64,000 bases of DNA from Candidatus Woesearchaeota archaeon (GCA_964572995.1 CAZNIA010000001.1:5611-69610), one strand, 5' to 3'. Shown: positions 31,901 to 57,361, counted from the first letter of the stretch. A program made the numbers and translations. Notes: generated from the sequence alone by a model not told the origin.

Positions 31901-34900
31901 TCTAAATGCTGAACCATCATATAATTAGAATCCCAAACTTTCGATGGGTTTTGCTGATTTGCTGAATTTGAATTATTATAATACATATAAAAAACATTAT
32001 TTGAAACAGAAGAAAGATTAACTTTAATCCAAGCAATAAGATGGGCATGAGTTGAATTGTAATTTTTATCAAATAATTCTATTTCGTGATTCAATTTATT
32101 CTTTCCATCTAAAGAAGTAAATAATATATCATAACCATCTGTTCTTGAATAATCGTGCAATGCCGCATCATAAATATCAATTAACATTGGGAAATTAGTA
32201 AGATTTGCTGTTATCTTTGATGAAGATACATTAATCTGCCTTCTTTTATTCCATTCTGAGTGATACCAACTTGACCAGGATAGAGTCTGATTATTATGCC
32301 ATCCTCCATTCCAGGTTCCATATAGTGAACAGAAACCCAATCCATCTGAATCCATTGCTGTAAAGTTAAAAAAGTTATTTTGAAGGGAATTAAAATAAGT
32401 TTTATTAGTTGGAGTAACAAGAGTTATTGCTGGCCCAGTGGTTGATACTGAAAAGCTAACTTCCACTATAGATAAATGATTGAGAGTGTCATTAGAATAA
32501 AAATTAAGACTATGAGTTCCTTCACTTGTATCAAAAGTGGTATTTGTTCCACAGGCGATTGTTTGATTTACCTGATTGTCTATATTCCACCAACACATGC
32601 TTACGCCTGCAACATTATCTCTTATAGTATAAGTTAAAGGAAGGCTGGAATTATAACTATAAGCCTTGAGTTCTGGTTCAAGAATATCTACTGTGGGTCC
32701 AACTGTATCTAACCCTATTTTTCTTGTTAAAGTTGAATTTATATTGTATGCTAAATCGATTACAGTAACATTATAATAATAAACTCCATCATTTAAATCT
32801 GTCCAGTTAATCTCTCTTCTTGAATCATTATAAGTTGAAGAATTGAAAAGATTGTATCCTGAATCATAAAGATTAAATGTAACATTTGCTTCATTCAATT
32901 CTGTAACAGAAAGATTTACATAAATCCAGGTTCTTGAAAAGTTTGCATTGTTCTCTTCTGTACTAGAACTAAAAGAAATTAAAGAATAAGTAGTATCAAT
33001 AATTATTGTATTATTTTGTGTTTGGAAATTATTTCCTGATAAATCAAAGATATTATAAAACCATTTGAAAATTCCATCATATAAAAAGTTGTAAACTATT
33101 CCTGTAATTATATCTGTTCCTGAGATATCTTGAGTAGTCTCATTTATTAAATTAGTTTCATTGTATACAAATAAAGTCATATTTGATAGGCCATAATTGT
33201 CAGATGCATTTAATGTAAAATTCTGCAAAGAGGAATTTAAATAAGTATTATTCTCAGGAGAGACCAAGGTTGCATTTGGATTTTCTAAATCTATAATCGC
33301 AAATTGGGTTTCATTATAATAAATAGAATAATTAAAAAAATCATCTCTCATCATTGAAAAATTGTAAATGCCTACTGCCAATTCCTGTTCTGAGTTATTT
33401 GATATGAATGTTCCGTTTCTATATAATGTGAAAGGAGTTGTACAATTTGCCCAGACTAAAAAAACATCTGAATAATTTAAGGGACTAGTTGCATTGAATA
33501 AAACCTGACAATTTTCTGGATTTTTATTTAATGTAAAAAAACTTGTGTTATAAATAAAAGAATAATTTGAAGTGTCTGTTCTTTGAGCTGTAAAATTGAA
33601 ATATCCTGCCCCATTTATTTGTTCTGAATTATTTAATATTATTGTCCCATCTCTATATAACGTAAATGTGGAAGTGGCATTTGCCCAGACTAAAAAAGTG
33701 TCAGGATAAGTTAATGGACTGGTTGAATTGAATAAAACTTGAAAGTTTTCTGGGTTTTTATTAACAGTAAAGAATTGTGTATTTATTATGTTTGTATAAT
33801 TTGCAGTGTCTGTTCTTTGTACTGTTAAATTATAATATCCTGCCCCTGAATTAATCAATGAATTGTTTGAAGTTATTGTTCCGTTTAAATAAAAGGTGTA
33901 ACCTGATGAACAATTTGTATATGCAATAAATGTTTCAGGATAAGTTATTGGAGAAGTTGCATTGAAATAAACTCCACAATCATAATAGCTTGATTTATTT
34001 ATCTGAACTGTATATCTTGTCCAATTGATATTATTAGCTGTATCATTAATTGTAACATTAATTTCATAGTTACCTACTGCCAAAGAGGTTGCATTACTTA
34101 AAAATCCTGATTGATTTATTGAAAACCTTGTATCATTAACAGAATAATATCCAAATTCAATGTCGTCTGTTGCATCGAAGTCTACACCCAGAGATTCATT
34201 TCCATAAAAGAGTGATTCATTATCTGGAATCTTTGTAAAATATGGAGGAATAGTATCAACAATTCTAAATTGCGTCTGATTAAATAGCATAGAATAGTTT
34301 TGAGTGTCTGTCCTAAACATTGAAAAATTATATGCACTAACAGACAATACCTGTTCCGAATTATTTGAGATTAATGTTCCGTTTCTATATAATGTAAAAG
34401 GGGTTGTGCAATTTGCCCAGACTAAAAAGGTGTCAGGATAAGTTAATGGACTAGTTGCATTGAATAAAACCTGACAATTTTCGGGGTTTTTATTAACAGT
34501 AAAGAATTGTGTATCAATTATTTTTGAATAATTCTGTGTGTCTGTTCTTTGTACTGTTAAATTATAATATCCTGCCCCTGAATTAATCAATGAATTGTTT
34601 GAAGTTATTGTTCCGTTTAAATAAAAGGTGTAACCTGATGAACAATTTGTATATGCAATAAATGTTTCAGGATAAGTTATTGGAGAAGTTGCATTGAAAT
34701 AAACTCCACAATCATAATAGCTTGATTTATTTATCTGAACTGTATATCTTGTCCAATTGATATTATTAGCTGTATCATTAATTGTAACATTAATTTCATA
34801 GTTACCTACTGCCAAAGAGGTTGCATTACTTAAAAATCCTGATTGATTTATTGAAAACCTTGTATCATTAACAGAATAATATCCAAATTCAATGTCGTCT

Positions 34901-38828: not shown

Positions 38829-40034
38829 ATGTATAAAAATATAAACTTAATGAAGATGGGAATGATTTTCTTAATAGTTATTGTATTAGTTTCTTTTATT
38901 TCTGCTGCAAACATTGGAATAAGTCCAGCAAATGTTTATTTCAAAGATGTTTTAAGAGGAGGTTATGCTGAAAGAACAGTAATAATTACAATAGATTCTG
39001 AAGAACCCACACAAGTAAGTTTAACTCCAAGAGGAGAGATAGCAGAATGGATTTCCTTTGATGAAAAGGAGTTTGAAGTTTCAAAAGAAAATCCATATTA
39101 TCTCAAGATAATCATACAACCTCCTGTAGATATGCCAAATGGAAATTACTCTGGATTCTTGAGAGTTGCAACTTCCAGCGATTCTAAAGGAGCAGAAGGA
39201 CAAGCAACTGGAATAATAAATGCTGCACTTGATTTATACTCAGAAGTTGAAATAACTGACGTAGAATATTCTTTATGTAGAGCATGGAACTTTAATGTAG
39301 AATCAGCTGAAAAAGGAGATGATATCTTATTTAAGCTGAATATTTATAATCAAGGTAATATACGATTATATCCAACAATTAAAATTGATATTTGGGATAG
39401 AGATAGAATAAGCATAATAAAACAAGTGGAATTTTCCAATGATATGGTGATTCCAACTACTGAAAAAGAGATAATAATCCCGGTTAGTTCCTCTGATCTT
39501 GAAATTGGGCAATATTGGGCAGAAGTGACTTCTGTGGAATGTTATGCCTCTCAAACACTAACCTTTGATGTTCTTGAAGAAGGAGCCTTAAAGGCTCAAG
39601 GAACTCTTTTAAGTGTAATTTCTCCTCCTTGGATAAAGATAGGAGATACAACATTAATTGAAGCTGTATTCGAGAACACTGGTGAAAAAACTGTAAACGC
39701 GCGTTTCAAAGGGGAAATTACTCTTGGGAGTAAGATAGTTCAAATTTTAGAAAGTGAAATAAGTTCTGTTGAAATTGGAGAGAGAGAAACATTCAAATTC
39801 TATTTTACTCCAAAAGAAGAAGGAAGATACATTGTAAATGGGGTGGTTTTTTATGATGGAAAAAGAACTTTTGAAAAAAGCACTGTGATAAATGTTGAAA
39901 AAAGCGGCATTGACTGGAGTAAATTAAAGATTTATTTGATATATTTAATTTTAATTGTAGCAATAGCTTACTTAGCTTATAAGATAAAAAAAGAAAAATC
40001 TATTGAAATAAAAAAATGGAGGAGATTAAAATGA
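38829..40034 (+). CDS. exported protein (401 aa) with signal peptide and C-terminal TM anchor
   Basis: N-terminal MGMIFLIVIVLVSFISAA and C-terminal IYLIYLILIVAIAYLAYKIKK. Confidence 0.6.
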   Translation: MYKNINLMKMGMIFLIVIVLVSFISAANIGISPANVYFKDVLRGGYAERTVIITIDSEEPTQVSLTPRGEIAEWISFDEKEFEVSKENPYYLKIIIQPPVDMPNGNYSGFLRVATSSDSKGAEGQATGIINAALDLYSEVEITDVEYSLCRAWNFNVESAEKGDDILFKLNIYNQGNIRLYPTIKIDIWDRDRISIIKQVEFSNDMVIPTTEKEIIIPVSSSDLEIGQYWAEVTSVECYASQTLTFDVLEEGALKAQGTLLSVISPPWIKIGDTTLIEAVFENTGEKTVNARFKGEITLGSKIVQILESEISSVEIGERETFKFYFTPKEEGRYIVNGVVFYDGKRTFEKSTVINVEKSGIDWSKLKIYLIYLILIVAIAYLAYKIKKEKSIEIKKWRRLK

Positions 40035-42046
40035 ATAAAAGTATTAATGTTTTAATCTTGTTTGTAGTCCTATCGCTCTTAACTAGCTCTTTTGTTTCTT
40101 CTGCTTCTGCATTTGTTATAACAGCAAATTATGATTTTACAAACTCTTCATTTATAGATGGTAAAGTTTACAAAACAGATTCTGTTGTTCTTAGAATTAA
40201 AACAAATTCAGAGACAGAATGTGTTTATGGAAACTCTTACTCTCTTTCAAATAATTTTGATGGAGAATATGGTTTAACTCATGAGGCATACATCGAAAAT
40301 CTAGAAGAAGGATTCCATGAGTATTATATAAGGTGCGGGGAGATATATAATCCAATAATGAGAATAGGGTTTGCTACAAGCATTCCTATTTATGCTACAA
40401 TACAAATATCTGAAGAACCTCCTCTTAAAGAAGGCAAATATAAAATTAATTTAATTACATCTAAAACTAGTTTAGAGGCTCCAACACTTGAATATAGCTT
40501 TGATGAACTCGTATATAAGCCTATTTCTTTGAAAGGAGAAGGAGAAAACTGGGAAGGTAATTTAATTATCCCTGCATCTGTTGGAGAAAGTGTTTGTTCT
40601 TTCAGATTTAAGGCAAAAGATTTGGCTGGAGAAGAAGGAACAAAAATTGTTGGAGACACTTCATTTATCGTAGATAGTTTAAAACCTTCAACAATAAGCA
40701 TACTAAATGCAATAGGGTATCAAGGACAAATAAAATTAAACTGGTTTTCTGATGAAAAAGTTAAAGAATTTAATATATACAAGTCTGAAAATCCTCAATT
40801 AGATTATACTAACTTTTATGAAACGTCTTCAAAAGATTATTTTTATGATACTAATGTAGAAAAGGGCAAAACTTATTATTATAGAGTTGCAGGAATAGAC
40901 GAGGCTGGAAACGTCGGAGATTTGTCAATAGAAGTATACGCCACCGCATTATTAACAAATTCCTCTGGAACTTCTGGACTCAATCCAAGTTTAATAGGAA
41001 AAGTAGATAATTTCATATCTGAAATAAATTCAGTTATAAATAATATTGAAAACATAAACAACCTTCTTGAATTAAAAGAAGAGAAAGAAAAGGAATTATT
41101 TAAAGAAATTAAATTAGATAAAGAAATAGAATCATCATTATCTGAATTAAACTCTTTAAAAAGAGATGTAGGTATTTATAAGTTACAAGACTTGAGTTTA
41201 GAAGAATTAAATAAAAAATTAGATTCTTCTAATCTTAGATTGAGTATAATTAAAAAGAAAATACCTGAAGATATTATTATTAAAGAAGAAAAAGAAATAT
41301 CTAGACAATTAGATGAGGGGAACCTACAAAAAGTCTTTTTAGAATATTCTCAAAATTTGGAATCAGATTACAAAAAGGATATAAGCGAAACATTGAAGAT
41401 TATTAAAGAAAATGAAATTAAGATAACGGGGAGAATATATTCTTTAGAGATATTGTACTTAGATGGGACAAAAAAACAAATAACATTATTTAAAGAAGAA
41501 ATTGAAAGTGATTTAGAAGAAACAGAAAATTTGAAATTCATTTTGGTTGTTCCTAAAGAGGTTGCAGAAAAATCTTCTGAGATGAAGATATTAAATTTAG
41601 AATATGAAATAATCAAAGATGACCCTGTTCTATCTTTTAATTCGGATATAAAAAGCATAAGTTATTATTTAAGTAAAGAGGTGGCTACAAATTCTTTAGA
41701 AGATATTTTAATCTCTCCTGTGAAAATAAATGTTGAAGAATCTTCTAAGATAACAGGGAATTCTATATTTAATGGAGAATCCAAGAATCCATTTGGAATA
41801 ATTGTCTTGGCATTATTTGCTACAATATTGGCAGTATATCTTTTAAAGATAAAAAAAGAGCCAAAATTAAAACCCCTTCTGACAATAATTGAGGATATAA
41901 AGAAGTCTAAAGAGCTTTTAAAAGAGGGAAAGGAAAAAGAGGCTTTAAATTTGTATAATAATGCAAAAGAGAGATACAAAGACCTTAATGAAAAAGAAAA
42001 AAGAATGGTAATGAAAAGTATGAATAATATCGAGAGAGGAGGATAA
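40016..42046 (+). CDS. exported FN3-like-domain protein (676 aa) with coiled-coil region, C-terminal TM anchor and conserved cytoplasmic tail motif
   Basis: Signal peptide. FN3-like LNWFSDEKVKEFNIYKSEN...GKTYYYRVAGIDEAGNVGDLS. TM helix IIVLALFATILAVYLL followed by ...EKEALNLYNNAKERYKDLNEKEKR. Confidence 0.6.
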   Translation: MEEIKMNKSINVLILFVVLSLLTSSFVSSASAFVITANYDFTNSSFIDGKVYKTDSVVLRIKTNSETECVYGNSYSLSNNFDGEYGLTHEAYIENLEEGFHEYYIRCGEIYNPIMRIGFATSIPIYATIQISEEPPLKEGKYKINLITSKTSLEAPTLEYSFDELVYKPISLKGEGENWEGNLIIPASVGESVCSFRFKAKDLAGEEGTKIVGDTSFIVDSLKPSTISILNAIGYQGQIKLNWFSDEKVKEFNIYKSENPQLDYTNFYETSSKDYFYDTNVEKGKTYYYRVAGIDEAGNVGDLSIEVYATALLTNSSGTSGLNPSLIGKVDNFISEINSVINNIENINNLLELKEEKEKELFKEIKLDKEIESSLSELNSLKRDVGIYKLQDLSLEELNKKLDSSNLRLSIIKKKIPEDIIIKEEKEISRQLDEGNLQKVFLEYSQNLESDYKKDISETLKIIKENEIKITGRIYSLEILYLDGTKKQITLFKEEIESDLEETENLKFILVVPKEVAEKSSEMKILNLEYEIIKDDPVLSFNSDIKSISYYLSKEVATNSLEDILISPVKINVEESSKITGNSIFNGESKNPFGIIVLALFATILAVYLLKIKKEPKLKPLLTIIEDIKKSKELLKEGKEKEALNLYNNAKERYKDLNEKEKRMVMKSMNNIERGG

Positions 42047-42047
42047 A

Positions 42048-43931
42048 ATGAATAGAAAAAATATTTTAATTGTAACTTTATTTCTTTCTTTAGTTATACT
42101 TCTAATGAATATTATTTCTGCAGCACATTACATAGTGGGTATTGTGGAAGATGCAAAAGATGGAACCAGTTCTAATGATCATACAATTTTATTATGGAAT
42201 CCTTCTGTTGGAATATTTGAAAATCTCACAGACCTAATTGGACCAAATGGAAACTCTCATGTGAACAATATTTATATGATTGATTGTGAACTTCTTCCAA
42301 GTGGATGCAATATAGGAGAGAATCTAACTTTAAAGGTAATAAATAATGGGGAGAATTATATATCTGAAGAAAAAAATGTGACTGTGACTGGTGCCGGATA
42401 TGACCTTGTTAGCAATATAACATTAAACTCCCCTCCTGATGTAGGCCTAATTTTCCCTTACTCTTTTGCGAATATCTCTAGTTCAGAAATTAATTTTAAC
42501 TGTTCTATCTTTGACTTTGATTTAAACTTAAAGGAAGCGAGTTTATATGGAACTTGGGATGGAGGATGGAATTTAAATGAAACTAAGGGTATTATCTCAG
42601 AAGGAGGATTTATTACATTTAATAAAAATCTTTTGGAAGGCTTGTATGAATACAATTGTATGGCAACGGACAACCTTTTAACTTCATCCTTTGCAACAGA
42701 AAATATTACTTTCACTATTGATTTAACAAAACCGAATATTGAATCTATCTTTGTAAATTCAACTTATTCATGCGGCCAATCAAATTTTGTCAGAGTAAAT
42801 TGTACAACTTATGATACTTTACTTAATGTAGATAAGGTTATTATTCAAACTATTTCTCCTTCTGAAACAAAAAATTATACTGCCTCTCTTCTTACAAGTA
42901 ATACTTATTATTCAGATATTTTGTTGGATGAGGTTGGAGGCTGGACATTTAATTGTATTTCAAATGATACTGCTGGAAACGTAAACAATTTAACTTCTCA
43001 AATAGTGAATGTCTTCTCTAATTCTCCTGAATTATATATCAATTTTACAACTATTAGGTTAAGTGAAGAAAAACCTATAGAAAACCAAGAAATAAAAATT
43101 AATGCAGTTATTGAAAATTTTGGTTGTTCAATTGCTGAAAACGTATTGGTTAGTTTTTTTGAAGGCGACCCTTCTGAATCTGGAGATAATATTTATAACT
43201 ATACTTTAAACATAAGTTCTCTTTCAGCTTTTCCTGCAAATATTTCATGGATTGCTAAAATAGGTCCAAACAATATATTTGTTATTGCGGATTATGATAA
43301 TAAAATAAATGAAGAAAACGAGACTAATAATAAAGCAAATAACACCTTTTCTATAAATGCCTGGCAAGATATTTATGGAAATATTAGCTTAGATAAAATA
43401 ATTGGGGGGGATAATATTAGCATAAAGAAATGGTTCAATGAGAGTCAGCTTGAAGGCCATGTTTTCATAACAGATTCTGAATGCGAAGTGGATTGGCTTT
43501 CCTTGCAAGCCCTGGGGAAGTCTAAATCTGGTGAAGATAGTTCTAATGATTTTTTAGAAATTGATGAAGTATTAAATATGATTAATTTTGAAGATTCAAT
43601 ATCTAATGTCTTTTCAGATAATCAAAATCCTAAGAACACAAAAAATATGTTAATTTATCAAAAAGAGATAGAAAATGTTCCAGTCATAAAATCGACTAAT
43701 AATTCTAATTTCATAACAGGGCTCCTATGGGATTTTTCTGATGATAGAGAAGGAGAAAATGGAGAATTTGATACAATAGATAAAGAAGATATAGTTTTTG
43801 TTGCAGAAGTCAATAAAAGTTCTGAAGGAAATTATGGACTTTACGATTATGAGATAAAAATACCTTCAAGATTAAGAGAGTATAATAATTTAGATAATGA
43901 AGAGGTGTATCTTTATTACAATTTAAATTAA
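42048..43931 (+). CDS. secreted protein (627 aa). Its N-terminal domain is paralogous to 37628..38827, and its C-terminal CARDB-like module plus conserved tail is shared with giant protein 1
   Basis: The C-terminal ~250 aa (from ...EIKINAVIENFG to SFFEGDPSESGD, and STNNSNFITGLLWDFSDD...YGLYDYEIKIPSRLREYN) aligns with the giant 1 C-terminus (...STNNSNFVTGILWDFSDD...YGTYDYELRVPARLREYN). Confidence 0.7.
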   Translation: MNRKNILIVTLFLSLVILLMNIISAAHYIVGIVEDAKDGTSSNDHTILLWNPSVGIFENLTDLIGPNGNSHVNNIYMIDCELLPSGCNIGENLTLKVINNGENYISEEKNVTVTGAGYDLVSNITLNSPPDVGLIFPYSFANISSSEINFNCSIFDFDLNLKEASLYGTWDGGWNLNETKGIISEGGFITFNKNLLEGLYEYNCMATDNLLTSSFATENITFTIDLTKPNIESIFVNSTYSCGQSNFVRVNCTTYDTLLNVDKVIIQTISPSETKNYTASLLTSNTYYSDILLDEVGGWTFNCISNDTAGNVNNLTSQIVNVFSNSPELYINFTTIRLSEEKPIENQEIKINAVIENFGCSIAENVLVSFFEGDPSESGDNIYNYTLNISSLSAFPANISWIAKIGPNNIFVIADYDNKINEENETNNKANNTFSINAWQDIYGNISLDKIIGGDNISIKKWFNESQLEGHVFITDSECEVDWLSLQALGKSKSGEDSSNDFLEIDEVLNMINFEDSISNVFSDNQNPKNTKNMLIYQKEIENVPVIKSTNNSNFITGLLWDFSDDREGENGEFDTIDKEDIVFVAEVNKSSEGNYGLYDYEIKIPSRLREYNNLDNEEVYLYYNLN

Positions 43932-46288
43932 TCTTTCTTAACGGGCATTGTACTTTTAATAAACTGATCTATTATAATAGCAATCTTGGACTTATCCTTT
44001 TCTGCTGCTATTTTTTTAGATAAATCTTGTGATACCTGTTCAGCCCATTTTGCAATATCATTTTTATTTGAATTTACATGTAGAAGAAATATTTCCTGAT
44101 CTAATCCAGGCAGAGTTTCTTTTAATTCTTTAAGTGTAGATATCATTATTCCATTATCAAATGTAAGAGGTTTAAGTATTTTGGTTCCAATATTTTCTAC
44201 TTCTGCTTTTTTCTCTTCTTTTTTTTGTTTTTTCTGCTCTTCTTTTTCATAAACAGCCCTTGCTTTCTTTGCTTCTTCTACTGATTTCTCTATTTCTGAT
44301 ACATCTAATAACTTCTTCTCTACTTTCTTTGGTTTCTTTCCTATTTTCTCCCATTGTTTTTGTAATCTTGGACCTAGTCCTTCTACATAAATATCAACAA
44401 CAGAGAAATTTCCCGTCATCAATTTATCTTTAATAAGCTTTAATTCCATCTTGAAATCAAAGATGTCTATTTTTTCTTTATCTAACTGTTCAACTTGGTT
44501 TTCAAAATCATCAATTAAATCATTATACTTATTGTATTTCTCTAATTCTTCATCTGAAAGCCTTCTTGTATTATGAAGAATTGGCCTAAAATTAATAAAA
44601 TATGGTTTACCCCTATTGTAAGAAGTATTCACAAACATTCCTACCCCTACTGAAGCTTTAACTAGTGATTGTAAAAATTCTTCTCCATATTTTACTTTTA
44701 TTCTTCCTAAATCGCCTTCATCTCTTGTCCTCATTTGAATCTCTGTGTTTATATTTGCTTTTATTTCTCCTACAAAATCACTTAATACCTGAGAGACCAA
44801 CATTACTCCTATTCCCCACTTTCTAAATTCTCTACAAGCCCTTTCAATTTGCAAAAAACCTTCTCCATTTCCACCAAATTTTGAAAGCAACCTATGGACT
44901 TCATCAAAAACAAGAAGAACTTTCAAATCCGGTGTTTCTTTTGGATCTGACTTAAATATTTGTCTTATTACGCTTGCAACAAAAATATCCATATCGTTTG
45001 GATCTAATTTGTTTAATGCAAAAATCTGTATTTGTCCTGGATGAATGAATTTTTCTATTTCAATTATCTCTCTTGCATGAGATATCTGACGTATATTCCC
45101 AAAAAATGCTCTTGCATCTGTTTGCTTCAATCCAAAATTAGGATAATAAGAAAGCATTTTTTTGTCTTCACATTTTCTAAGCATACCTGACCATTGGGCT
45201 GTGGGATCAAAAACAATCACTGCTACATTTTTCAGAAGAGCTTCTTCGATTATTACTTGCGCTGCAATACTTTTGCCTCCACCTGTTGCTCCTGCAACAA
45301 TTGTATGTGTCTTAAGTTTATCTGGTTCTAAACAAGCCTTGAGCTTAGTCTCTGCAATTTTTCCCAAGATTAAAACTTCTTTGCTTGGTAAAGGTAATTT
45401 TTTTGTGTCCAACTCCATCCTATATTTTTTTGAAAGCTTAATGTGTCTTCTTATCAACAGATAAACAATTAAAAAAAGCAAGATAAACCCCAATCCGGAA
45501 AACAAAGCCCAAAGAGGAAGAAATCCAAAAATAACTCTGCTAAAAAATGGCTTTTTAATTATAAATTGGCTTAATGAAAAAATTGTTTCTCCAGAATAAG
45601 TTGCAAAAGTTTGTAATAAATATTCTCCTTTATCTGCCTGTTCTGGTATCTCGAATTTTCTAACAAGATAAAATGAACTTGTAAAATTAAATGATTCTTC
45701 TCCTAAGAAAAAGGATTCATTTTTTGAATTATTCAAATAATATCTAAGGGTTAAATTTTCTATTGGTCCTGATTTTATCCTATTTAAATAAATTTTAAAT
45801 CTCAATCCTTCATTTAATTTAAATGATTTTTTAAATGGTTCAGAATCTACAAAAAAAAGAGGGCTCAAATCAGAATCAACGATTCTTAATGTTATAGGAA
45901 GTTTATCTGTGATCCCTCCTGAAAGAGATAATTCTCCTGTATAATTTCCTATCTCTCCCCCTTTTATATAAAAATAGAAAGAAGTACTATTTTTTGGCGA
46001 TACCTCTATCCCAGAATAATCAAATTCTATGAAATCTGCTGCTGGCCCAGATACAGAAAAACCTACAGAAATTGATTGTGAATTTAAATTTTCTATTGTA
46101 ACAAAATCCTGGAACAACGTCCCTAATGCAACAGTTCTATCTATTTTACTTCTAGAAATAGAATAATGTTCTTTCTTTATTTCTTCTCCAAATGCAGAAT
46201 CTTCTGCAGATAAAAGAACTAAACTTAAATAAAATAAAATAACAAAAACGATACAGAATAGAGAGATATTTCTTTTAATTGAATTCAT
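43928..46288 (-). CDS. second membrane-spanning FtsK/HerA-superfamily (VirB4/DUF87-like) ATPase (786 aa). It has an ~245-aa extracellular N-terminal region, one TM helix and a cytoplasmic ATPase with a C-terminal extension
   Basis: Walker A is TIVAGATGGGKS and Walker B is VLLVFDEVHRLL. TM helix VIFGFLPLWALFSGLGFILLFLIVYLLI. The ATPase core is about 85-90% identical at the amino-acid level to 18774..22136. One ~85-aa stretch, ELEKYNKYND..PRLQKQWEKIGKKPKKVEKKLLD, is identical but for two conservative substitutions (I/L, V/I). Confidence 0.8.
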   Translation of the reverse strand: MNSIKRNISLFCIVFVILFYLSLVLLSAEDSAFGEEIKKEHYSISRSKIDRTVALGTLFQDFVTIENLNSQSISVGFSVSGPAADFIEFDYSGIEVSPKNSTSFYFYIKGGEIGNYTGELSLSGGITDKLPITLRIVDSDLSPLFFVDSEPFKKSFKLNEGLRFKIYLNRIKSGPIENLTLRYYLNNSKNESFFLGEESFNFTSSFYLVRKFEIPEQADKGEYLLQTFATYSGETIFSLSQFIIKKPFFSRVIFGFLPLWALFSGLGFILLFLIVYLLIRRHIKLSKKYRMELDTKKLPLPSKEVLILGKIAETKLKACLEPDKLKTHTIVAGATGGGKSIAAQVIIEEALLKNVAVIVFDPTAQWSGMLRKCEDKKMLSYYPNFGLKQTDARAFFGNIRQISHAREIIEIEKFIHPGQIQIFALNKLDPNDMDIFVASVIRQIFKSDPKETPDLKVLLVFDEVHRLLSKFGGNGEGFLQIERACREFRKWGIGVMLVSQVLSDFVGEIKANINTEIQMRTRDEGDLGRIKVKYGEEFLQSLVKASVGVGMFVNTSYNRGKPYFINFRPILHNTRRLSDEELEKYNKYNDLIDDFENQVEQLDKEKIDIFDFKMELKLIKDKLMTGNFSVVDIYVEGLGPRLQKQWEKIGKKPKKVEKKLLDVSEIEKSVEEAKKARAVYEKEEQKKQKKEEKKAEVENIGTKILKPLTFDNGIMISTLKELKETLPGLDQEIFLLHVNSNKNDIAKWAEQVSQDLSKKIAAEKDKSKIAIIIDQFIKSTMPVKKD

Positions 46289-48324
46289 TTTTTTGGTTTA
46301 TTTTTTTCCTCTTTCTTTTCTGAAACTTGTTTTTTAGTTTGTTTTTTGCTTTCTAATAAATTAAAGGCATTATTTATTTCTTCTCCCGGCCATCCTTTAT
46401 CCAAAAGAGACTTTTTTATATAATCATCTGCGATTCCTTTTTTTCTGCATTCGTTGATATAATTTATGTATTTCTCTGGTGGCAATTTAACCCCACTTTT
46501 TGAAGTGTTTGGGGAATCAGGAGAAACAATCTTTTTATCCTCTGTTTTATCTTCTAATTCTTTTTTGTCTTTTGAAAAAGAAGTATATAGTTCTGCAATC
46601 TCTTTCTTAAGTCTTTCTTTATCGTTAAACACCTCTTTTGGTATTGGCTCCCGATACATCTCCTTTATCTTCATGAATAATTCAAGAGCCTCTTCTTCTT
46701 TATTTTGCTTTATTAATTCTTTTAGTTTATTCAATAAGATATATAATTCCAATAATCTTTCTTTTTTCTTATCTCTTTTATATTTTGCCATGAAAACAGC
46801 CAAAAGTATTGCAAAAATTAGTATTAAAAGTATTATTGAACCAATTTTTACAAAAGAAGAAAAATTAAATCTTGTACCTACTTCAAAATCCACTGAATCT
46901 ATTGCAATATTTTTATTGTCTGAAGCTCTTACGTAAAATAAATAAGGCCCTTCTGGAGCTATTTCTGGAACCTGCAAACTTCTTTCTAAGAATAATGAAG
47001 AAAAGAAACTTACTTCTTCTTCAGAAAAGTTGTAAACCTTTCCTGTATAATCTTTTATTGCATAATACAGAGAAGCGTCTACATTCTTTAAATCTTTTAA
47101 ATTAATTAAAGTAATGTTCACTTTCACTTCTTTGCCTGGTTTAACCAATTTATATTCTTCAGAAATATTTAATACAATATCAAATTCAAGATCAATTCCT
47201 TGTATATCTAAAACCGTTGGAATGGATTTATTTATTTTAGGAGATTGAACATTTATATAACCGAAATACTGCCCGGGAATTGTTCTTTCTGGTGCATAAA
47301 AATCAAGAGTTATTTCTTTGGACTTTCCAGGAAGAATTGAAAAGTTTGTTGAACTAAAAACAGCAAAATCCTTTAACTTAGGGGAAGAAAGATTAATTAA
47401 AATCTCTTCTAACCCAATATTGGTTATTTTTAATACTCTTGTTTTAGATGTTCCTTGTTTAAGAGAAACCTTCAATTCATAAAAACTTAGCTGAAAATCT
47501 TCAACTTTTCTTACTTGCAAAACATCTATTTTTCCAAAAAGATCTGATAATCCTCCAGAATCCCCGCTATCTCCTCCACCCCCTCCTCCGCCCCCTCCTT
47601 CAGGAGGGAGTTCTTGAGCAGCAACTGTAAAATTTTGTATGTCTGTAACATTCATGTTTCCTGAACTATCAAATGCATAATATCTCCAATAAACTATATT
47701 GAATGCTGGAGCTCTTATTTGAACTTTTGAAGAAGAGATATTTTCTGTTCCTGAAAAACCAACTGCAGAATAATTATCCCATCCTGCCCCTTGATTTATT
47801 GAAAATATATATTCTTGTAAATTTCTGTCATCTGTCCAATTGGTATAAAAAGTTACAATATCATTTTGATAAACAATTGTCTTGTCTATATTTGGAAAAT
47901 ACCATTTTGGGGGCTCTGTGTCTAAGCCCACGGACAATGTAACTATATTGCTTAGAGTATCATACTGGGTGTCTGAAGCATAAAACGTGATGTTTTTTTG
48001 CCCTGAATATCCTGGTCTTGGAAAAAAAGAAACCATATTTGTTACGGGGTCTATAGATACATAAATATCATTTATTGAGGAGTTATAATAAATTAAAGGC
48101 ATTCCTTCTGGATCTTCAAAATATTCGTCTAAATCGAACGCATCAATTAGACTTTCATTTTCTGGCCAACTTTGGCTTGGTATTTCTTTTATTAGATAGG
48201 GGGGAGCATTGGGAACATTTAAACTAGTTTCGGTTTCAGCCAAAATAAAAGATACAAAAGACAGAATTACAAATAAGAACAATAAAAAAAAAGTTCTCTC
48301 TTTTAATAAACACCTCTGTTTCAC
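46285..48324 (-). CDS. exported protein (679 aa) with Gly-rich linker, TM anchor and cytoplasmic coiled-coil tail bearing the conserved tail motif. It sits in an operon with ATPase 2 (4-nt overlap)
   Basis: Signal/anchor FFLLFLFVILSFVSFILA. The linker is PPEGGGGGGGGGDSGDSGG. TM helix IGSIILLILIFAILLAVFMAKY, then ...NKEEEALELFMKIKEMYREPIPKEV. Confidence 0.65.
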   Translation of the reverse strand: MKQRCLLKERTFFLLFLFVILSFVSFILAETETSLNVPNAPPYLIKEIPSQSWPENESLIDAFDLDEYFEDPEGMPLIYYNSSINDIYVSIDPVTNMVSFFPRPGYSGQKNITFYASDTQYDTLSNIVTLSVGLDTEPPKWYFPNIDKTIVYQNDIVTFYTNWTDDRNLQEYIFSINQGAGWDNYSAVGFSGTENISSSKVQIRAPAFNIVYWRYYAFDSSGNMNVTDIQNFTVAAQELPPEGGGGGGGGGDSGDSGGLSDLFGKIDVLQVRKVEDFQLSFYELKVSLKQGTSKTRVLKITNIGLEEILINLSSPKLKDFAVFSSTNFSILPGKSKEITLDFYAPERTIPGQYFGYINVQSPKINKSIPTVLDIQGIDLEFDIVLNISEEYKLVKPGKEVKVNITLINLKDLKNVDASLYYAIKDYTGKVYNFSEEEVSFFSSLFLERSLQVPEIAPEGPYLFYVRASDNKNIAIDSVDFEVGTRFNFSSFVKIGSIILLILIFAILLAVFMAKYKRDKKKERLLELYILLNKLKELIKQNKEEEALELFMKIKEMYREPIPKEVFNDKERLKKEIAELYTSFSKDKKELEDKTEDKKIVSPDSPNTSKSGVKLPPEKYINYINECRKKGIADDYIKKSLLDKGWPGEEINNAFNLLESKKQTKKQVSEKKEEKNKPKK

Positions 48325-48451
48325 TTTTTATTACCAAGGATATATTGGAGTGCTATCCTTATATGAATATTGCCATCTATTTATTTAAATCTTCTTAAAA
48401 AAACATCAATAAAATGAAAAACTTTATAAAGTACATTTTGATTATTCTATA

Positions 48452-48658
48452 ATGCCTAAAAAGGACTTAAATGAGACTAAATCTAAAAGCGCTACAGTTA
48501 AGGGGACTATACCTTTAAATCAAAAAGAAGCGATTAGGAAATTAATAGGAGTTATTGGAAGCAATGAACAAGATGTTGTTGGGAAAATTATAACATTGTG
48601 GCTATATAATGAAGGATATCTTGTTAGTAAAATAAAGAGAGGTAAACAAGATGAATAA
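48452..48658 (+). CDS. small (68 aa) hypothetical protein; its stop overlaps the start of the 1106-aa surface gene
   Basis: ORF with an 8-nt overlap onto 48651. It is a possible small regulator, with no clear motif. Confidence 0.35.
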   Translation: MPKKDLNETKSKSATVKGTIPLNQKEAIRKLIGVIGSNEQDVVGKIITLWLYNEGYLVSKIKRGKQDE

Positions 48659-51600
48659 AAAATTTCTGAATATGGTTTGGGTAATCTCATTATCGGTGCT
48701 GCTAATCTTTTTTATAACTGCAGAGGAAAATCCAGCTAATCTTTCCAAAGAAAATTCTTCTTCTACAACTCTTGTTTTAGATGGAATAGAATCTTTAAGT
48801 AATTTAGAAGATATTACTGAAAATAATTTTTCATTTAATTTAAATTCTTCTGAAATTAATGAAGAAGAAACTCCTGAAATTTACACAAATTACAATTTAA
48901 ATCAAACAAATATAACGGGGGATTTGTCTAAAGAAAATTCTAAAGATACAATAAAAAACAATATTAGTAACGGGAGTAGTAGTACTTTGGATAATAATCA
49001 AGTTAATTCAACATTTCATTCTACAATATTATCTAAAGAGGGAGGCTCTTCTGGATCTAATTATATTGGTTTAGAAGAGTTAAATGAGTTAGATGAAAAT
49101 ATTTCTGAAGGGGCCCAAGTAGATTATTATGATGCCTTGCCCACAGATGCAAATTATACTTCTTTGCAAATCCGGGGTAAAAAGGAGATAGATATCGGAG
49201 GGTATGGAGAAATAAAAATAACCAAAGAAGAATTTGAAAAGAGTGAGTTTGAAAAAGAGGTGATTATTTCTAGCGAAGAGCATTATGAAGGGTATCTAAG
49301 AGTTTATGCTTCTCCAACACAAGAATCTAAGGAAGACTACATAAAAATATACTGGAAGAATCAAGAAGATTTAGAAATTACAAATATGGATGAATTTTCT
49401 GTAGAATATTATGATGAAAATGAAAACGGATTGATTGATAGAATCTCTTGGATTGTTCCGCATTTAAGTGAACAAAGATTTGATATTGTTATAAAAACAA
49501 ATTTTAGTGATAATGATAATCTAATTATTTTAGACGTTGAAGCTCCTTCAAGCTTAGCAATAAATCCTATAGAATTTAGGGTAAATGTAAGTTATGATTT
49601 TCCAGAAAAAATAAATTGCTCTTTAGAATTGAAAAAAGATGCTACAAGAATGTTTTTTGAATATTTTGAGGTCACAAATGGAACAATTGGAACTCCTAAT
49701 TTGCAGAATGGAAATTATACATGGGAGATAATTTGTTTTGATGTAGATAATTCAAACGCTTCGGCTAAAATTGGGGCTTTTGAAATTTCAGAAGACTTTT
49801 CTTCTTCGTTAGTAGAAGGAAAATTATATTTCTTAAATTTGGTTGAAAATAAAATAAAGAATCCTGAAACGATTATAATAAATTCCAGCACACCCTCCAA
49901 CTTTTCTGTAGATATAATTAAAAATGGAGGAGCAATTGTATTTAATAAATATTATTTGAACTCTGCTTCTCTTTTAATGAATGAAACAATCCTAAATAGT
50001 TATGGAAATTACGCATTAAGAGTATCTTTCAACGAGCCCTCTCCAGAATACGTAATATTAACTAACTTTTCTGTAACAAGTGCAAATATCAACATCAATA
50101 CTACAAATATAGAAGAAGGGGAATCTGTGAAAATTACCGCAAATGTTAATTCTCCAACCAAAATGATTTCCACAATAATCTTGGATTATGGGGATGGAAC
50201 AAATGATTATCGTGCTTCAAATTCAAATTCTTTCTCTGGAGAATTTACCAAAAAGTACAATCAGAAAGGCACTTATTCTCCTAAATTAATTATAACTATT
50301 CTTGGAGGAGATACATTTAATATTACTAAAAATGGTATAACTGTAACAGAAGCTGAAGACCCAGAAGACAAAGACCCTCCTTCTATAACCTTGTATGACC
50401 CTGCACACAAAGAGGTTCTTGATGAGGAAATAATAAATTTCTCATATAAAGCAAGCGATAATATTAAAATACAAAATTGTACATTTAAATTATATAATAA
50501 TTGTGCTTCTCTGAATTCTTGTTCAACAGGAGATTCTAACCTTATTTTTCCTCTAAATTCTCAACAAAGGGCAATTGCAAACAACTATTCTATGCAAAAC
50601 AATAAAGAGACTGTAATAAAATTACAAGATTTTGAAGATGGAATCTATTTATGGGAGGTGGAATGCTATGATAACTCTTCAAATTCTGATTTTGAGTGGA
50701 ATATTTTTCAAATAGCAAAGGATAATACCACTATTGTTTCGTCTGATTATGAACAAAAGGAAGAAATAGGGGCATTAAAGGAGCAAGCAGATAATTTCCT
50801 TAACTATGGTTTTGATCTTGAAGAGAAAGAGGTTTTAGACGGTTTAAACATAATAAATGAAACTAAATATTATAAAAAAAGACTTTTAGACATTCAAGAT
50901 TTCTTTGAAGAAAATTACAAATATGTTTCCACAGAAGAATTAAGGGAGAGAAAGACTGAAGAATATATCCAAGAACTAGAAAAAATAAAGAATAGTATAC
51001 CTGTAGACATCAGTGTAGAAGAAGATTATGAATATATCAAAAACAGTATGGATAAAGAATTCAAGGAAATTATAGAAGAATACTTTTCTTCTACAAATAC
51101 TCAGCTAAGTAAAGCTTCTTTAAGAAAATTAGAAGAGATAAATAAAGAAATACAAAATGAGATTTCTGTTTCCACAAATATTAAAAGAGTTAGCATAAAA
51201 TATGAAAACGGAACTCAAGAAATGGTTTTTATAAAAAAGAAAGTGGCCCTTAATGATGGTTCTTATAGTAGTCTTTTAGAGATAATTCCTGAAGAAATTG
51301 TTGAAGATCCTGCAGACATAGTCTTTATTACAGAAAAAAGAAGAGTTGGAGAAGGAAACATGTTTGAAATAGATTATGATGATTTAATTAATGGTGAAAT
51401 AATTTATTATATAACAAAACCAATAAAATTAAAAGATATTGAAAATACAGAAACTGTCTTATTTGAAGAATACTTAACAAACGTTGAAACAAGAGTCACG
51501 GGTTTCTTTGTTTTTAGTGGCGTTTCTGAAGATTTAACTATTTACATTGTAATTGCTTTTATTCTGTTAATTGTGTTGTTGGTTATCATTCCAATTGTGA

Positions 51601-51971
51601 TTAAAAAATTCAAGATGATTAGCTGGAAAAAGGAACCAAATGTGGTTAAGGTCATACATTTAATTGAAGAAATAAACCGGTTGTTGAAAGAAAGAGAAAT
51701 TGAGAAAGCGAGAGAGAATTATTATAAAATAAAAGAAATATATCCTGTTTTGCCTTATAAAACAAGGCCGTACTTTTACAAGAAGATAAGTGAAATGCTG
51801 GTTAAAATAGACAAAAAAGACATTTTTGGGTTAGTTAAAGAATATCAGGAAGCTAAAAAAAGATGGGACAAAGAGAACCTTATGAGATTATATGAAGACA
51901 TAAAAAAGATATACAAAAGGCTTCCAGAAAAAGACAGAAAAAAAGTATATGATATAATTAATGGGTACTAA
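48651..51971 (+). CDS. large surface protein (1106 aa). It shares the conserved head module with the two giant proteins, and has a C-terminal TM anchor plus two copies of the cytoplasmic tail motif
   Basis: Signal peptide. EVIISSEEHYEGYLRVYASPTQESKEDYIKIYWKNQEDLEI...ENGLIDRISWIVPHLSEQRFDIVIKTN is homologous to the giant head module. TM helix IYIVIAFILLIVLLVIIPIVI, then EKARENYYKIKEIYPVLPYKTR and MRLYEDIKKIYKRLPEKDRKK. Confidence 0.75.
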   Translation: MNKKFLNMVWVISLSVLLIFFITAEENPANLSKENSSSTTLVLDGIESLSNLEDITENNFSFNLNSSEINEEETPEIYTNYNLNQTNITGDLSKENSKDTIKNNISNGSSSTLDNNQVNSTFHSTILSKEGGSSGSNYIGLEELNELDENISEGAQVDYYDALPTDANYTSLQIRGKKEIDIGGYGEIKITKEEFEKSEFEKEVIISSEEHYEGYLRVYASPTQESKEDYIKIYWKNQEDLEITNMDEFSVEYYDENENGLIDRISWIVPHLSEQRFDIVIKTNFSDNDNLIILDVEAPSSLAINPIEFRVNVSYDFPEKINCSLELKKDATRMFFEYFEVTNGTIGTPNLQNGNYTWEIICFDVDNSNASAKIGAFEISEDFSSSLVEGKLYFLNLVENKIKNPETIIINSSTPSNFSVDIIKNGGAIVFNKYYLNSASLLMNETILNSYGNYALRVSFNEPSPEYVILTNFSVTSANININTTNIEEGESVKITANVNSPTKMISTIILDYGDGTNDYRASNSNSFSGEFTKKYNQKGTYSPKLIITILGGDTFNITKNGITVTEAEDPEDKDPPSITLYDPAHKEVLDEEIINFSYKASDNIKIQNCTFKLYNNCASLNSCSTGDSNLIFPLNSQQRAIANNYSMQNNKETVIKLQDFEDGIYLWEVECYDNSSNSDFEWNIFQIAKDNTTIVSSDYEQKEEIGALKEQADNFLNYGFDLEEKEVLDGLNIINETKYYKKRLLDIQDFFEENYKYVSTEELRERKTEEYIQELEKIKNSIPVDISVEEDYEYIKNSMDKEFKEIIEEYFSSTNTQLSKASLRKLEEINKEIQNEISVSTNIKRVSIKYENGTQEMVFIKKKVALNDGSYSSLLEIIPEEIVEDPADIVFITEKRRVGEGNMFEIDYDDLINGEIIYYITKPIKLKDIENTETVLFEEYLTNVETRVTGFFVFSGVSEDLTIYIVIAFILLIVLLVIIPIVIKKFKMISWKKEPNVVKVIHLIEEINRLLKEREIEKARENYYKIKEIYPVLPYKTRPYFYKKISEMLVKIDKKDIFGLVKEYQEAKKRWDKENLMRLYEDIKKIYKRLPEKDRKKVYDIINGY

Positions 51972-54388: not shown

Positions 54389-55024
54389 ATGTTTGGATGG
54401 TTTTCTTGGAAAAAAGAGAGTAACAAGATAAGAGAGGATACAAAAGTTGGATTTGACTTTGTAAAAAAAGATATTGCTTCCTTAACAGGATGGATTAAAC
54501 ACCTTGATTCTGAAAGAAATCTGCAAAAAAGAGATATAGATCAAATAAAAGATGATTTGTCATCGATAAAAAATGAAATAGAAGCTATGAAAAATGTTCT
54601 TTCTATAATGAACGAATTAAAACCCAAACAGGTGTTTAAAACAAACAGGGCGCTGTTGGACAAACAAACACCTGTTTATGCTGTTCAAACAGGTGTTCAA
54701 ACAGGTGTTCAAACACCAAATTTAGACCAATTTTCAGTTACAGAAAGGGCAATACTTTGGATCTTATTAAATGCAGATATGAAGCTAGGATATGATGACT
54801 TATCAACAATATTAGGAAAGGAAAAAAGCACAATAAGGGGACAGATAAATGCAATAAAATCAAAAAGTGAGGGGTTAATAGAAGAGAGTATTGAAAGAAA
54901 TGGGAAGAAAAGGGTGTTTATACCTGAAGAAATAAAGGAAAAAATGCTAAAAAAACCAAAAGTGAGAGTTGGAGAATCTAAAAATAACAAGAAATATGAG
55001 AAAAATGAGGAAAAAACCACATGA
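54389..55024 (+). CDS. coiled-coil plus C-terminal winged-helix DNA-binding protein (211 aa) with a (VQTG)3 peptide repeat
   Basis: The N-terminal half is heptad-rich. The repeat VQTGVQTGVQT is encoded by gttcaaacaggt x3. The HTH-like segment is ERAILWILLNADMKLGYDDLSTILGKEKSTIRGQINAIK. Confidence 0.5.
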   Translation: MFGWFSWKKESNKIREDTKVGFDFVKKDIASLTGWIKHLDSERNLQKRDIDQIKDDLSSIKNEIEAMKNVLSIMNELKPKQVFKTNRALLDKQTPVYAVQTGVQTGVQTPNLDQFSVTERAILWILLNADMKLGYDDLSTILGKEKSTIRGQINAIKSKSEGLIEESIERNGKKRVFIPEEIKEKMLKKPKVRVGESKNNKKYEKNEEKTT

Positions 55025-55271: not shown

Positions 55272-56207
55272 TTAAAGTGCTCTTAATTGCAGAATTGTTG
55301 GAAGAGAGGCTATTTTTTTTAGGTTAGAAGAGACTGAAAGATGAATCGTTTTATTGTTTATTTTTGTTTTCTCGACGGGAATTCCTTTTTTTATTAATCT
55401 TCCTATATAATCTCTAATTGAACTTTCTGTTAAACCTAATTTAATTGAAAGGTTCTTATAATCTGTATATCCCTCTTCTTCTGAAAGCTGATAAATTACA
55501 GAAAAAACTGAGAATTCTTGATCTGTTAATCTTTTAAATTTTAATCTAACTTCTTTTTTTATGCTATCCAGAGAATCTAATATTTTTGCAGCGTCGTTTA
55601 TATAATCTGAAGAAGAATCTTCTTCTGATTTAATTCCTATATTATACGAACCTTTATCTGTCTGTTGGTTTGTCTGCTGGTTTGTCTGTCTGTCTGTTGG
55701 AACCCCTTCATTTCCTGTGGAAACTACCTTATTTTCGTCTTTTAAGGCGCTATAAGGTAAATTATGTGCTGGATTTGTCTTAATTTTCTCTTTTTCTGTT
55801 GGATTTTTTGAGACTTGTGTTGGAATAAAATCGTTTTGAGGATAAGGAAGAGAGTGGAGAGGAACATTTTGTGTTGAAAGGGGATTTAAGATAGGGGTTA
55901 AGCATATTGGAAATCCTTTTTGAAAAGGACAATTATATATTGGATGAATTAAAGAATTATCCTCAGAAGGAATATTCTCTTTTTGAAATTTTTCTTTTAA
56001 TATGGGAAGCTCATCTTTCTCTTCTTTCTCTTCTTTTCCTGTTCTTTCCGCCTTTTCATTCTTTCTAGCAATTATTTGAAGAACATCACATATTTCAATT
56101 AATCTTTGTCTTGTATCTTTTAATCCTTCACTTAATGAAGCTACTTCTCCTTTCAAAGATTCTATATCTTGTTTAACTTTAGAAAAAGCCTCTTTTACCT
56201 GTTCCAT
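55272..56207 (-). CDS. coiled-coil plus C-terminal winged-helix DNA-binding protein (311 aa) with a QTNQQTNQQT repeat. Its architecture parallels 54389..55024
   Basis: N-terminal coiled coil MEQVKEAFSKVKQDIESLKGEVASLSEGLKDTRQRL. The HTH-like segment is EFSVFSVIYQLSEEEGYTDYKNLSIKLGLTESSIRDYIGRLIKKGI. Confidence 0.5.
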   Translation of the reverse strand: MEQVKEAFSKVKQDIESLKGEVASLSEGLKDTRQRLIEICDVLQIIARKNEKAERTGKEEKEEKDELPILKEKFQKENIPSEDNSLIHPIYNCPFQKGFPICLTPILNPLSTQNVPLHSLPYPQNDFIPTQVSKNPTEKEKIKTNPAHNLPYSALKDENKVVSTGNEGVPTDRQTNQQTNQQTDKGSYNIGIKSEEDSSSDYINDAAKILDSLDSIKKEVRLKFKRLTDQEFSVFSVIYQLSEEEGYTDYKNLSIKLGLTESSIRDYIGRLIKKGIPVEKTKINNKTIHLSVSSNLKKIASLPTILQLRAL

Positions 56208-56943: not shown

Positions 56944-57070
56944 TAAATCTTAAATTAACCCTCCCTCCCCTTGATTTCTTATGGAAATATTTATAAAGAA
57001 TTTTTTTATTTTTTTATTTTTTTATTTATTTTATAAAAATATATATAATATAATATATATATAATATAAT

Positions 57071-57105
57071 TAATAATTAATAATTAATAATTAATAATTA
57101 ATAAT
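57071..57105. repeat. (TAATAAT)5 perfect tandem repeat inside the origin AT-rich region (candidate duplex-unwinding element)
   Basis: taataattaataattaataattaataattaataat is read directly. Confidence 0.85.
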
Positions 57106-57213
57106 TTAAATTAATAATTTTTATAATAATTTATAATTTAAAAAAATTAATTTTAAAATTTTTCATTTAAGTGGATAATTTAATTGAAGTTAATTAATTT
57201 CATTGTTTAATTC

Positions 57214-57340: not shown

Positions 57341-57361
57341 ACAAGGGAAATTTGAATTAAA

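Follow-up and report, generated by a model that had tools for sequence, protein, structure and literature searches.

An unannotated TPR-like module past the membrane anchors of surface proteins encoded near a HerA-like ATPase in a Woesearchaeota archaeon

Introduction

FtsK/HerA motors, among them EssC/EccC of the type VII secretion system (T7SS), the coupling proteins of type IV secretion systems (T4SS), and the Ced DNA-import ATPase, commonly bind their substrates or adaptors via short helical C-terminal regions. Two helical modules of other systems bear on the present case: tetratricopeptide repeats (TPRs), whose expected role is protein-protein interaction, and the MIT domain (Vps4/CdvC, calpain-7), a small TPR-like bundle of three helices through which proteins dock to a hexameric ATPase system at the membrane. 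Woesearchaeota and Pacearchaeota are abundant, uncultured, and host dependent, and almost all of their surface and host-interaction machinery is annotated as "hypothetical protein." Here we describe a stretch of 64,000 nucleotides from Candidatus Woesearchaeota archaeon (GCA_964572995.1 CAZNIA010000001.1:5611-69610), which in its whole 64-kb length is called the window and from whose first letter all positions are counted. Within it, three surface proteins (P1, P2, and P3) share a homologous unit of about 55 amino acids (aa) that lies behind their transmembrane (TM) anchors, and an ATPase assigned by its sequence to the HerA/FtsK superfamily is encoded directly beside P2.

The architecture of EssC is covered in PMC4925161. 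The ATPase beside P2 is likewise TM anchored and of the same superfamily as the FtsK/HerA motors; however, the tails described here belong to permanently anchored type I proteins and not to secreted substrates. A secretion system of archaea has been predicted in PMC5898192, but it is based on MoxR and distinct from the present one. Literature searches found no description of the domain that we report, of the triad formed by the ATPase, P2, and P3, or of the soluble scaffold protein in which the unit recurs.

Results and Discussion

The window contains four copies of the unit, one each in P1 and P2 and two in P3. The original prediction had reported that three different exported proteins share a related tail motif past the TM helix, and this is borne out: the open reading frames (ORFs) are found at the positions listed in Table 1, and the peptides that had been quoted are present in them. 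The extent of the similarity, however, had been set too narrowly, since the quoted motif corresponds to helix B and the turn that follows it (Y-x-x-L-P), which make up the conserved core of the unit, whereas the similarity covers about 55 residues rather than 20. The aligned copies consist of helix A, a G/N/R-K turn, helix B ("eeAl.lY..IK..Y..LP"), and a third helix past the LP turn; what had been taken for a spacer of about 25 basic or helical residues is helix A. A consensus of 55 aa that can be used for searches is VKEIFELIKEAKEALKEGKLEEAKELYEKIKEIYKRLPEKEKKKLYKKIKKLYEEID.

When each copy was scored with a hidden Markov model (HMM) from which it had been left out, the copies reached 18.2 to 25.1 bits, compared with 9.0 to 13.0 bits for the best of 1000 composition-matched shuffles; the P1 unit scored 25.1 bits versus at most 9.0 for its shuffles. 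In a six-frame scan of the window with the four-copy model, the next-best match reached 10 bits, and the other K/E-rich coiled coils of the window, including the ectodomain coil of P1 and the C termini of the ATPases, remained below 3 bits. As judged from sequence comparison, the similarity among the four copies is real homology.

All three proteins carry a Sec-like hydrophobic segment at the N terminus and are anchored by one TM helix toward the C terminus (Table 1). The first 15 residues past the TM helix carry a net charge of +4 in P1, P2, and P3 alike, and N-glycosylation sequons are frequent in the ectodomains and nearly absent from the tails (30 versus 0 in P3 and 15 versus 1 in P2); thus, the tails are predicted to be cytoplasmic. 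Together with the HMM scores and the database scan described below, this topology upholds the view that the tail is cytoplasmic, conserved, and specific. Because the unit starts 5 to 26 aa past the TM anchor in the anchored forms (median, 15), it would lie against the inner face of the membrane. The sharing of the tail is restricted to these three proteins. The two remaining C-terminally anchored proteins of the region, which end in basic tails of 15 and 8 aa, are without the unit, so that the statement that "several island proteins" share the motif holds for P1 to P3 and not for the other anchored proteins, whose tails are short and basic.

The P3 family comprises at least 48 full-length clusters at 50% identity, all with an identical architecture, and its most conserved segment is tail unit 2, with a mean pairwise identity of 0.44. 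In P2, about 95 further residues follow the unit, first as a disordered K/E/P-rich stretch and then as a small lineage-specific C-terminal domain. The latter, of 42 aa (KYINYINECRKKGIADDYIKKSLLDKGWPGEEINNAFNLLES; aa 618 to 659, positions 46348 to 46473), occurs only in the closest orthologues, which belong to four loci, and gave no family match beyond weak ones to DUF494 and PaaX_C. A separate observation concerns the ectodomain of P3, which has a conserved module in common with the 3680-aa giant surface protein of the window: 'NGLIDRISWIVPHLSEQ' in P3 (aa 263 to 273; 49437 to 49469) and 'NGLLDYIEWIVPHLSNQ' in the giant protein (aa 280 to 290; 36139 to 36171). The pattern [DE][RK][IV]SWxVPHL also retrieved four giant-protein loci (L036 to L039) from the genome collection.

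Table 1. Positions of the carrier proteins, their anchors and tail units, the two ATPases, and other features of the window (aa, amino acids; TM, transmembrane)
Feature	Position	Strand	Description
P1	40016..42046	+	676 aa, type I surface protein; Sec-like N-terminal signal, ectodomain with coiled coil, one C-terminal TM helix, one tail unit
P1 TM anchor	41789..41845	+	aa 592-610 (hydropathy scan), then juxtamembrane KIKKEPKLKP (KKEP at aa 613)
P1 tail unit	41882..42034	+	aa 623-673, TIIEDIKKSKELLKEGKEKEALNLYNNAKERYKDLNEKEKRMVMKSMNNIE; 39.2 bits, E 2e-11 against the 280-instance unit HMM
P2	46285..48324	-	679 aa, type I surface protein; Ig/Fn3-like ectodomain, TM helix, one tail unit
P2 TM anchor	46789..46845	-	aa 494-512 (hydropathy scan)
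P2 tail unit	46576..46752	-	aa 525-583, LELYILLNKLKELIKQNKEEEALELFMKIKEMYREPIPKEVFNDKERLKKEIAELYTSF; 45.7 bits, E 2e-13 against the unit HMM
P3	48651..51971	+	1106 aa, type I surface protein; PKD-like and other ectodomain modules, TM helix, two C-terminal tail units
P3 TM anchor	51546..51602	+	aa 966-984, then conserved juxtamembrane W-K-K-E-P-N-V
P3 tail unit 1	51642..51812	+	aa 998-1054; 59.6 bits, E 1e-17
P3 tail unit 2	51813..51962	+	aa 1055-1104; 59.6 bits, E 1e-17
HerA/FtsK-superfamily ATPase (beside P2)	43928..46288	-	786 aa; signal/TM, ectodomain of ~230 aa, TM helix at aa 261-279, cytoplasmic P-loop domain
Paralogous membrane-anchored HerA-like ATPase	18774..22136	-	1120 aa; CarboxypepD_reg ectodomain
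Anchored protein without the unit	38829..40034		Basic tail of 15 aa
Anchored protein without the unit	24261..25931		Tail of 8 aa
Giant surface protein	25966..37008		3680 aa
Second giant protein	419..12253		3944 aa
Coiled-coil protein gene 1	54389..55024		C-terminal HTH-like domain
Coiled-coil protein gene 2	55272..56207		C-terminal HTH-like domain
Candidate replication origin	56944..57361		AT-rich intergenic gap
Orc1/Cdc6 gene	57362..58576		
Archaeal DNA polymerase D genes	58591..63757		Both subunits

Database-wide distribution

When 1.84 billion representative proteins were scanned exhaustively with HMMER, a profile built from the tails alone gave 202 matches at E <= 1e-3, while a word-indexed search returned close orthologues only. 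Architectures were read from the best 150 of the 202, a set that includes 86 TM-anchored proteins, 21 fragments, and at least 19 soluble proteins in which a winged helix-turn-helix (wHTH) domain is combined with units. Sixty-eight entries are P3-like, with 850 to 1200 aa, a signal, a C-terminal TM helix, and two units running to the C terminus, and 18 are P2-like, with 610 to 750 aa and one unit past the TM helix. The soluble type, with 250 to 900 aa, lacks a TM helix and starts with a winged-helix-like domain ("AAKKLGV...IE.WA.FLEE.G...IKY.FTTPY") that is followed by several units with the consensus "A..lY..ik..Y..LP.GF..kk.el...i..lY." The few leftover matches, which are the weakest, are ordinary KLC-type TPR proteins. 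The scan therefore returned three recurrent architectures instead of what the original prediction had held out as its refutation, a generic K/E-rich coiled-coil composition found in unrelated cytoplasmic proteins.

Models from Pfam, NCBIfam, PHROG, and PADLOC were run on the tails and on the whole proteins, and none covers the unit. The public data also hold short tail-only entries. Tail orthologues P0004 and P0006, both from one 38.7-kb ENA contig, are listed as short "proteins" that start just past the TM helix or end frameshifted, which suggests that such entries are fragmented gene calls or assembly errors in public contigs and not free-standing tail genes.

Fold and kinship with known helical modules

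The AlphaFold2 model of the P3 tail (predicted local distance difference test score [pLDDT], 94.4; predicted template modeling score [pTM], 0.84) has five helices, at aa 996 to 1013, 1017 to 1033, 1036 to 1071, 1074 to 1088, and 1093 to 1104. The long helix in the middle spans both units, with the third helix of unit 1 running into the first helix of unit 2. For P2, aa 513 to 589 were modeled with a pLDDT of 82.9 and three helices (514 to 539, 543 to 556, and 563 to 588), the first of which continues from the TM helix. We conclude that a TPR-like hairpin and a third, capping helix make up the unit and that it represents a distinct, unannotated variant of the helical repeats.

The likeness to TPRs lies chiefly in helix B, which shows A20, an aromatic residue at 24, an aliphatic residue at 27, and a proline at 32 to 35 (in the copies, "eeA..lY..IK..Y..LP") and thereby follows the pattern of the TPR consensus hairpin (A20, F/Y24, A/I27, P32). 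Across 43 P3 tails the A, Y, Y, and P and the aliphatic core are near invariant, as are the A and Y in 23 to 33 P2 tails. A profile search of the PDB matched designed consensus PPR/TPR proteins via 'GKAGRLEEALELFEEMKE', which corresponds to the TPR/PPR turn and helix B, and beyond these designed proteins a sequence search of the PDB gave only insignificant matches. Foldseek superimposed the models locally on TPR hairpins (1.1 to 1.5 A over 29 to 34 residues), with no significant global match in the PDB (best E values, 0.2 and 2.1); whole TPR domains, like MIT domains, gave TM-scores of 0.3 to 0.5. The Pfam TPR and PPR models gave no match to the three tails of the window even at E <= 10, and thus none at gathering score; the units of the soluble paralogues, in comparison, reach or come near the Pfam TPR thresholds, as in P0146, with 50.2 bits on TPR_2 at a cutoff of 27. 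The unit also differs from a TPR in its build: it has three helices, and where TPRs repeat every 34 aa, its copies follow each other at intervals of about 57 aa in P3 and about 74 aa in the soluble paralogues. Nor do the tails form a tandem TPR array, that is, a superhelix of at least three 34-aa motifs, since each tail has one or two units placed directly past the TM helix.

MIT domains appeared among the weak fold matches (Vps4 MIT of S. solfataricus, 2v6y; VPS4B MIT, 4u7y; tandem MIT of calpain-7, 8uc6). The unit does not qualify as one, with Foldseek TM-scores of 0.30 to 0.50, E values of 2.6 to 6.2, and no match to the Pfam MIT family. MIT domains are moreover parts of the ATPase itself or of soluble proteins, whereas the unit sits past a TM anchor, and no ESCRT-III genes were found in the locus. 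Overall, this TPR-like domain has no match in Pfam, NCBIfam, or the PDB and had not been annotated before; it qualifies as a candidate for a new family in Pfam or arCOG.

The HerA-like ATPase and its conserved neighborhood with P2 and P3

The ATPase encoded beside P2 matched PF01935 (DUF87) with 43.1 bits (cutoff, 23.2) and PF05872 (HerA_C) with 27.9 bits (cutoff, 22), and it matched HerA chains in the PDB with E values of 3.5e-7 to 3e-4. By these profile scores it is a distant member of the HerA/FtsK superfamily. Its best NCBIfam matches were weak (CedD, 40.6 bits versus a cutoff of 600; TraC, 25.6 versus 567; TraD, 22.1 versus 366), and an equivalog-level match to the DNA-translocation ATPases of Ced or T4SS systems is thus lacking. 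In public records it is named only "DUF87 domain-containing" or "ATP-binding protein." Past the P-loop domain, the protein continues with a conserved helical C-terminal region and then a variable C terminus. The helical region past the core (aa 576 to 655, positions 44324 to 44563; '...DFKMELKLIKDKLMTGNFSVVDIYVEGLGPRLQKQWEKIGKKPKK') has a mean pairwise identity of 0.74, compared with 0.78 for the catalytic core, and is thus as conserved as the latter; this region shows no homology to the tail unit and is a candidate for a docking surface.

To place the locus, the P3 family was scanned in one genome per GTDB species, which gave 39 loci, all of them from DPANN archaea. In 33 to 35 of the 39 (Woesearchaeota/Pacearchaeota), the gene order is the same as in the window, with the HerA-like ATPase gene and P2 together on one strand and P3 diverging from them, even where P3 identity has fallen to 28 to 35%. 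P2 orthologues were found in 34 loci, every time adjoined by the ATPase gene, and 33 of them keep the tail unit. In the window the stop codon of P2 and the start codon of the ATPase overlap as ATGA on the minus strand (46285 to 46288), and this 4-nucleotide overlap, which recurs in nine of the related loci, indicates co-translation of P2 and the ATPase.

An HMM built from 280 instances of the unit was run on every ORF of 60 aa or more in the 39 loci and matched only orthologues of P2 (33, with one unit each), P3 (31 with two units and 1 with one), and P1 (8). P1 homologues occur in those 8 related loci only, namely, in the closest relatives and in L025. Because P1 is limited to a subclade and has the same tail, a third ectodomain protein appears to have gained the tail in that subclade, which suggests that the unit is a portable module. 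The second ATPase of the window is a paralogue that closely resembles the ATPase beside P2 in its cytoplasmic domain, and it belongs to a widespread family of its own, with members of 1120 to 1270 aa.

The soluble multi-unit paralogue

The soluble proteins with multiple units also come from Woesearchaeota and have 5 to 7 units. Five members, 25 to 45% identical to the query P0070, were looked up, and in five of five contexts the gene lies directly upstream, on the same strand, of genes for a T2SSE (PilB/ArlI-type) ATPase and two T2SSF (PilC/ArlJ-type) proteins. Archaeal type IV pilus loci are known to encode cytoplasmic alpha-helical or coiled-coil accessory proteins, e.g., arCOG07564, arCOG05610, and arCOG07479 (Makarova, Koonin & Albers 2016, PMC4858521). 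The soluble paralogue fits this class, being cytoplasmic, all helical, and encoded with a PilB/ArlI-like ATPase and PilC/ArlJ-like platform proteins; a TM-anchored version or a link to a HerA-like ATPase is not mentioned in that paper. The operon, [wHTH + 5-7 TPR-like units]-[T2SSE ATPase]-[T2SSF]-[T2SSF], was seen in DPANN loci L040 to L046, often downstream of gyrB and the gene for ribosomal protein S3Ae, and one soluble-paralogue operon member had been mislabeled by JGI as "flagellar motor component MotA."

A proposed adaptor role and its alternatives

Genes for the unit are linked to genes for hexameric, membrane-associated P-loop ATPases in two independent neighborhoods, and the unit itself is a folded TPR-like module. 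On these grounds we consider it somewhat probable that the unit serves membrane ATPase machines as a protein-protein adaptor or scaffold, a reading that draws on gene context (synteny and translational coupling). In such a role, the unit would keep the surface proteins, each with a single TM anchor, together in a complex located at, or surrounding, the cytoplasmic portion of a hexameric ATPase associated with the membrane. Assembly could come about via direct contact with the ATPase, via stacking of units on one another, or both, and the complex would couple cytoplasmic events to the large glycosylated ectodomains outside. The original prediction had suspected the membrane ATPases of the locus as partners of the tail. 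For the ATPase beside P2, this suspicion has gained comparative backing from its adjacency to P2 and P3, the ATGA overlap, and the T2SSE neighbors of the soluble forms; it does not extend to the paralogous ATPase, which no unit-bearing gene adjoins.

This last observation weighs against an adaptor role, and so do four others. No fusion of the unit with an ATPase was found among the best 150 of the 202 matches. Likewise, no cryptic unit was detected in the conserved C-terminal helical region of the ATPase (hhalign probability, 0.1%). The tails are strongly basic, with 26 to 29% K+R versus 16 to 20% D+E. Finally, the tails are much less conserved than the cytoplasmic part of the ATPase, with mean pairwise identities of 0.40 to 0.43 versus 0.74 to 0.78.

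The faster evolution of the tails is as expected if they co-evolve with each other, and it thereby favors an explanation in which the units of P1, P2, and P3 only oligomerize, stacking into a hetero-oligomer or lattice, with the ATPase as a functional neighbor and not a direct ligand. The rigid joining of the two units through one long helix in the P3 model and the soluble paralogues, in which arrays of 5 to 7 units repeat about every 74 aa, point in the same direction. Such an arrangement leaves the tie of the unit genes to ATPase genes in two independent neighborhoods unexplained, however, and we regard it as rather unlikely.

The basic composition of the tails and the start of the unit only 5 to 26 aa from the bilayer would also suit a domain whose K/R-rich helices bind anionic lipid head groups or, given that the best named matches of the ATPase, although weak, are DNA translocases (CedD, HerA, and TraC/TraD), DNA or RNA handled by the motor. 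The conserved positions, however, form a TPR-type core (A, Y, I/L, and P) and not a basic patch, and soluble paralogues of other lineages, e.g., P0105, are far less lysine rich yet keep the motif; binding of this kind therefore seems improbable as the function of the unit.

The original prediction had proposed a docking or sorting signal. The docking half of this proposal agrees with a helical module of the kind that usually binds proteins, while the sorting half does not agree with a folded domain of 55 to 120 aa past the TM helix. In its most specific form, the sorting explanation would have an FtsK/HerA-like ATPase recognize the helical element at the C terminus and export or insert the protein, as with EccC/EssC of the T7SS; the superfamily of the ATPase, the conserved synteny, and the position of a helical hairpin at the extreme C terminus of P1 and P3 are compatible with it. 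P1 to P3, however, come with N-terminal signals of the Sec type and with a TM anchor that stops transfer, and the unit stays cytoplasmic. The unit is a stable folded domain (pLDDT, 94 and 83) and not a short linear signal, it is followed in P2 by the residues described above, it is lacking in the other proteins of the locus that are anchored or secreted, and it is present in 5 to 7 copies in a soluble cytoplasmic protein. Known C-terminal signals also look different: those of PGF-CTERM/archaeosortase and LPXTG/sortase systems have a motif before the TM helix and then a short basic tail, whereas the unit lies past the TM helix, spans 55 to 120 aa, and has a predicted fold. Similarly, there is no resemblance to a WXG100-like export signal of the T7SS, as the carriers are proteins of 676 to 1106 aa with a Sec signal and a TM anchor and have no conserved WXG in the G/N/R-K turn. 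A role in sorting or export is therefore very doubtful. The weakest alternative, chance resemblance from a K/E-rich coiled-coil composition at about 30% GC, is refuted by the shuffles and the six-frame scan, by the fixed architectures of the database matches, and by orthologues that keep the unit at 28 to 35% overall identity.

A wider form of the adaptor reading is more tentative still. The unit could be the signature adaptor domain of DPANN-specific trans-envelope machines, in which an origin-proximal triad combines a HerA/FtsK-like motor with two surface proteins whose TPR-like tails plug in, and a pilus-type ATPase reuses the adaptor via the soluble scaffold of 5 to 7 units, perhaps with one unit per ATPase subunit. 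If this were so, ATP hydrolysis would be coupled to a large glycosylated surface structure, with possible roles in host attachment or in the exchange of DNA or other macromolecules with the host. Two conserved surface proteins, whose genes accompany that of a membrane HerA-like ATPase beside the replication origin, bear the domain at their cytoplasmic ends, and the soluble scaffold of a type IV pilus-like operon bears it as well. The domain thus provides a testable wiring diagram for DPANN envelope machines that may mediate contact between DPANN archaea and their hosts.

Genomic setting and other features of the window

The relatives of the genes in the window come from metagenome-assembled genomes of Woesearchaeota, Pacearchaeota, and Nanoarchaeia (DPANN). 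The region of P1 to P3 has many genes for secreted or membrane-anchored proteins in addition to the two membrane-anchored HerA-like ATPases, and genes for Orc1/Cdc6 and both subunits of archaeal DNA polymerase D (PolD) lie farther downstream (Table 1). The GC content is about 0.30 throughout the window, and in several distant genomes among the 39 related loci, the entire locus adjoins cdc6 and PolD. Because the GC content is uniform and the position beside cdc6/oriC is kept in distant genomes, the locus belongs to the core chromosome, and its earlier description as an island is not sustained. A genomic island or provirus was rejected on the same grounds, and the PHROG matches are to generic P-loop proteins only.

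The AT-rich intergenic gap directly upstream of the orc1/cdc6 and PolD genes is probably the replication origin. It falls in the bin of 56 to 58 kb, where the GC content is 0.24, and contains two 30-nucleotide direct repeats with TTTTCCACAGGAAATA, at 57209 to 57238 and 57306 to 57335. Between P3 and this candidate origin, two divergent genes encode coiled-coil proteins with a C-terminal helix-turn-helix (HTH)-like domain; the product of the second matched HTH_36 with 23.3 bits, below the Pfam cutoff of 25, and both genes are kept beside cdc6 in 9 to 10 related loci. Two giant proteins are also encoded in the window (Table 1). The one of 3680 aa contains an exact 124-aa duplication, starting at aa 701 and aa 945 (33805 to 34176 and 34537 to 34908), and many further near-identical repeats that are rich in sequons.

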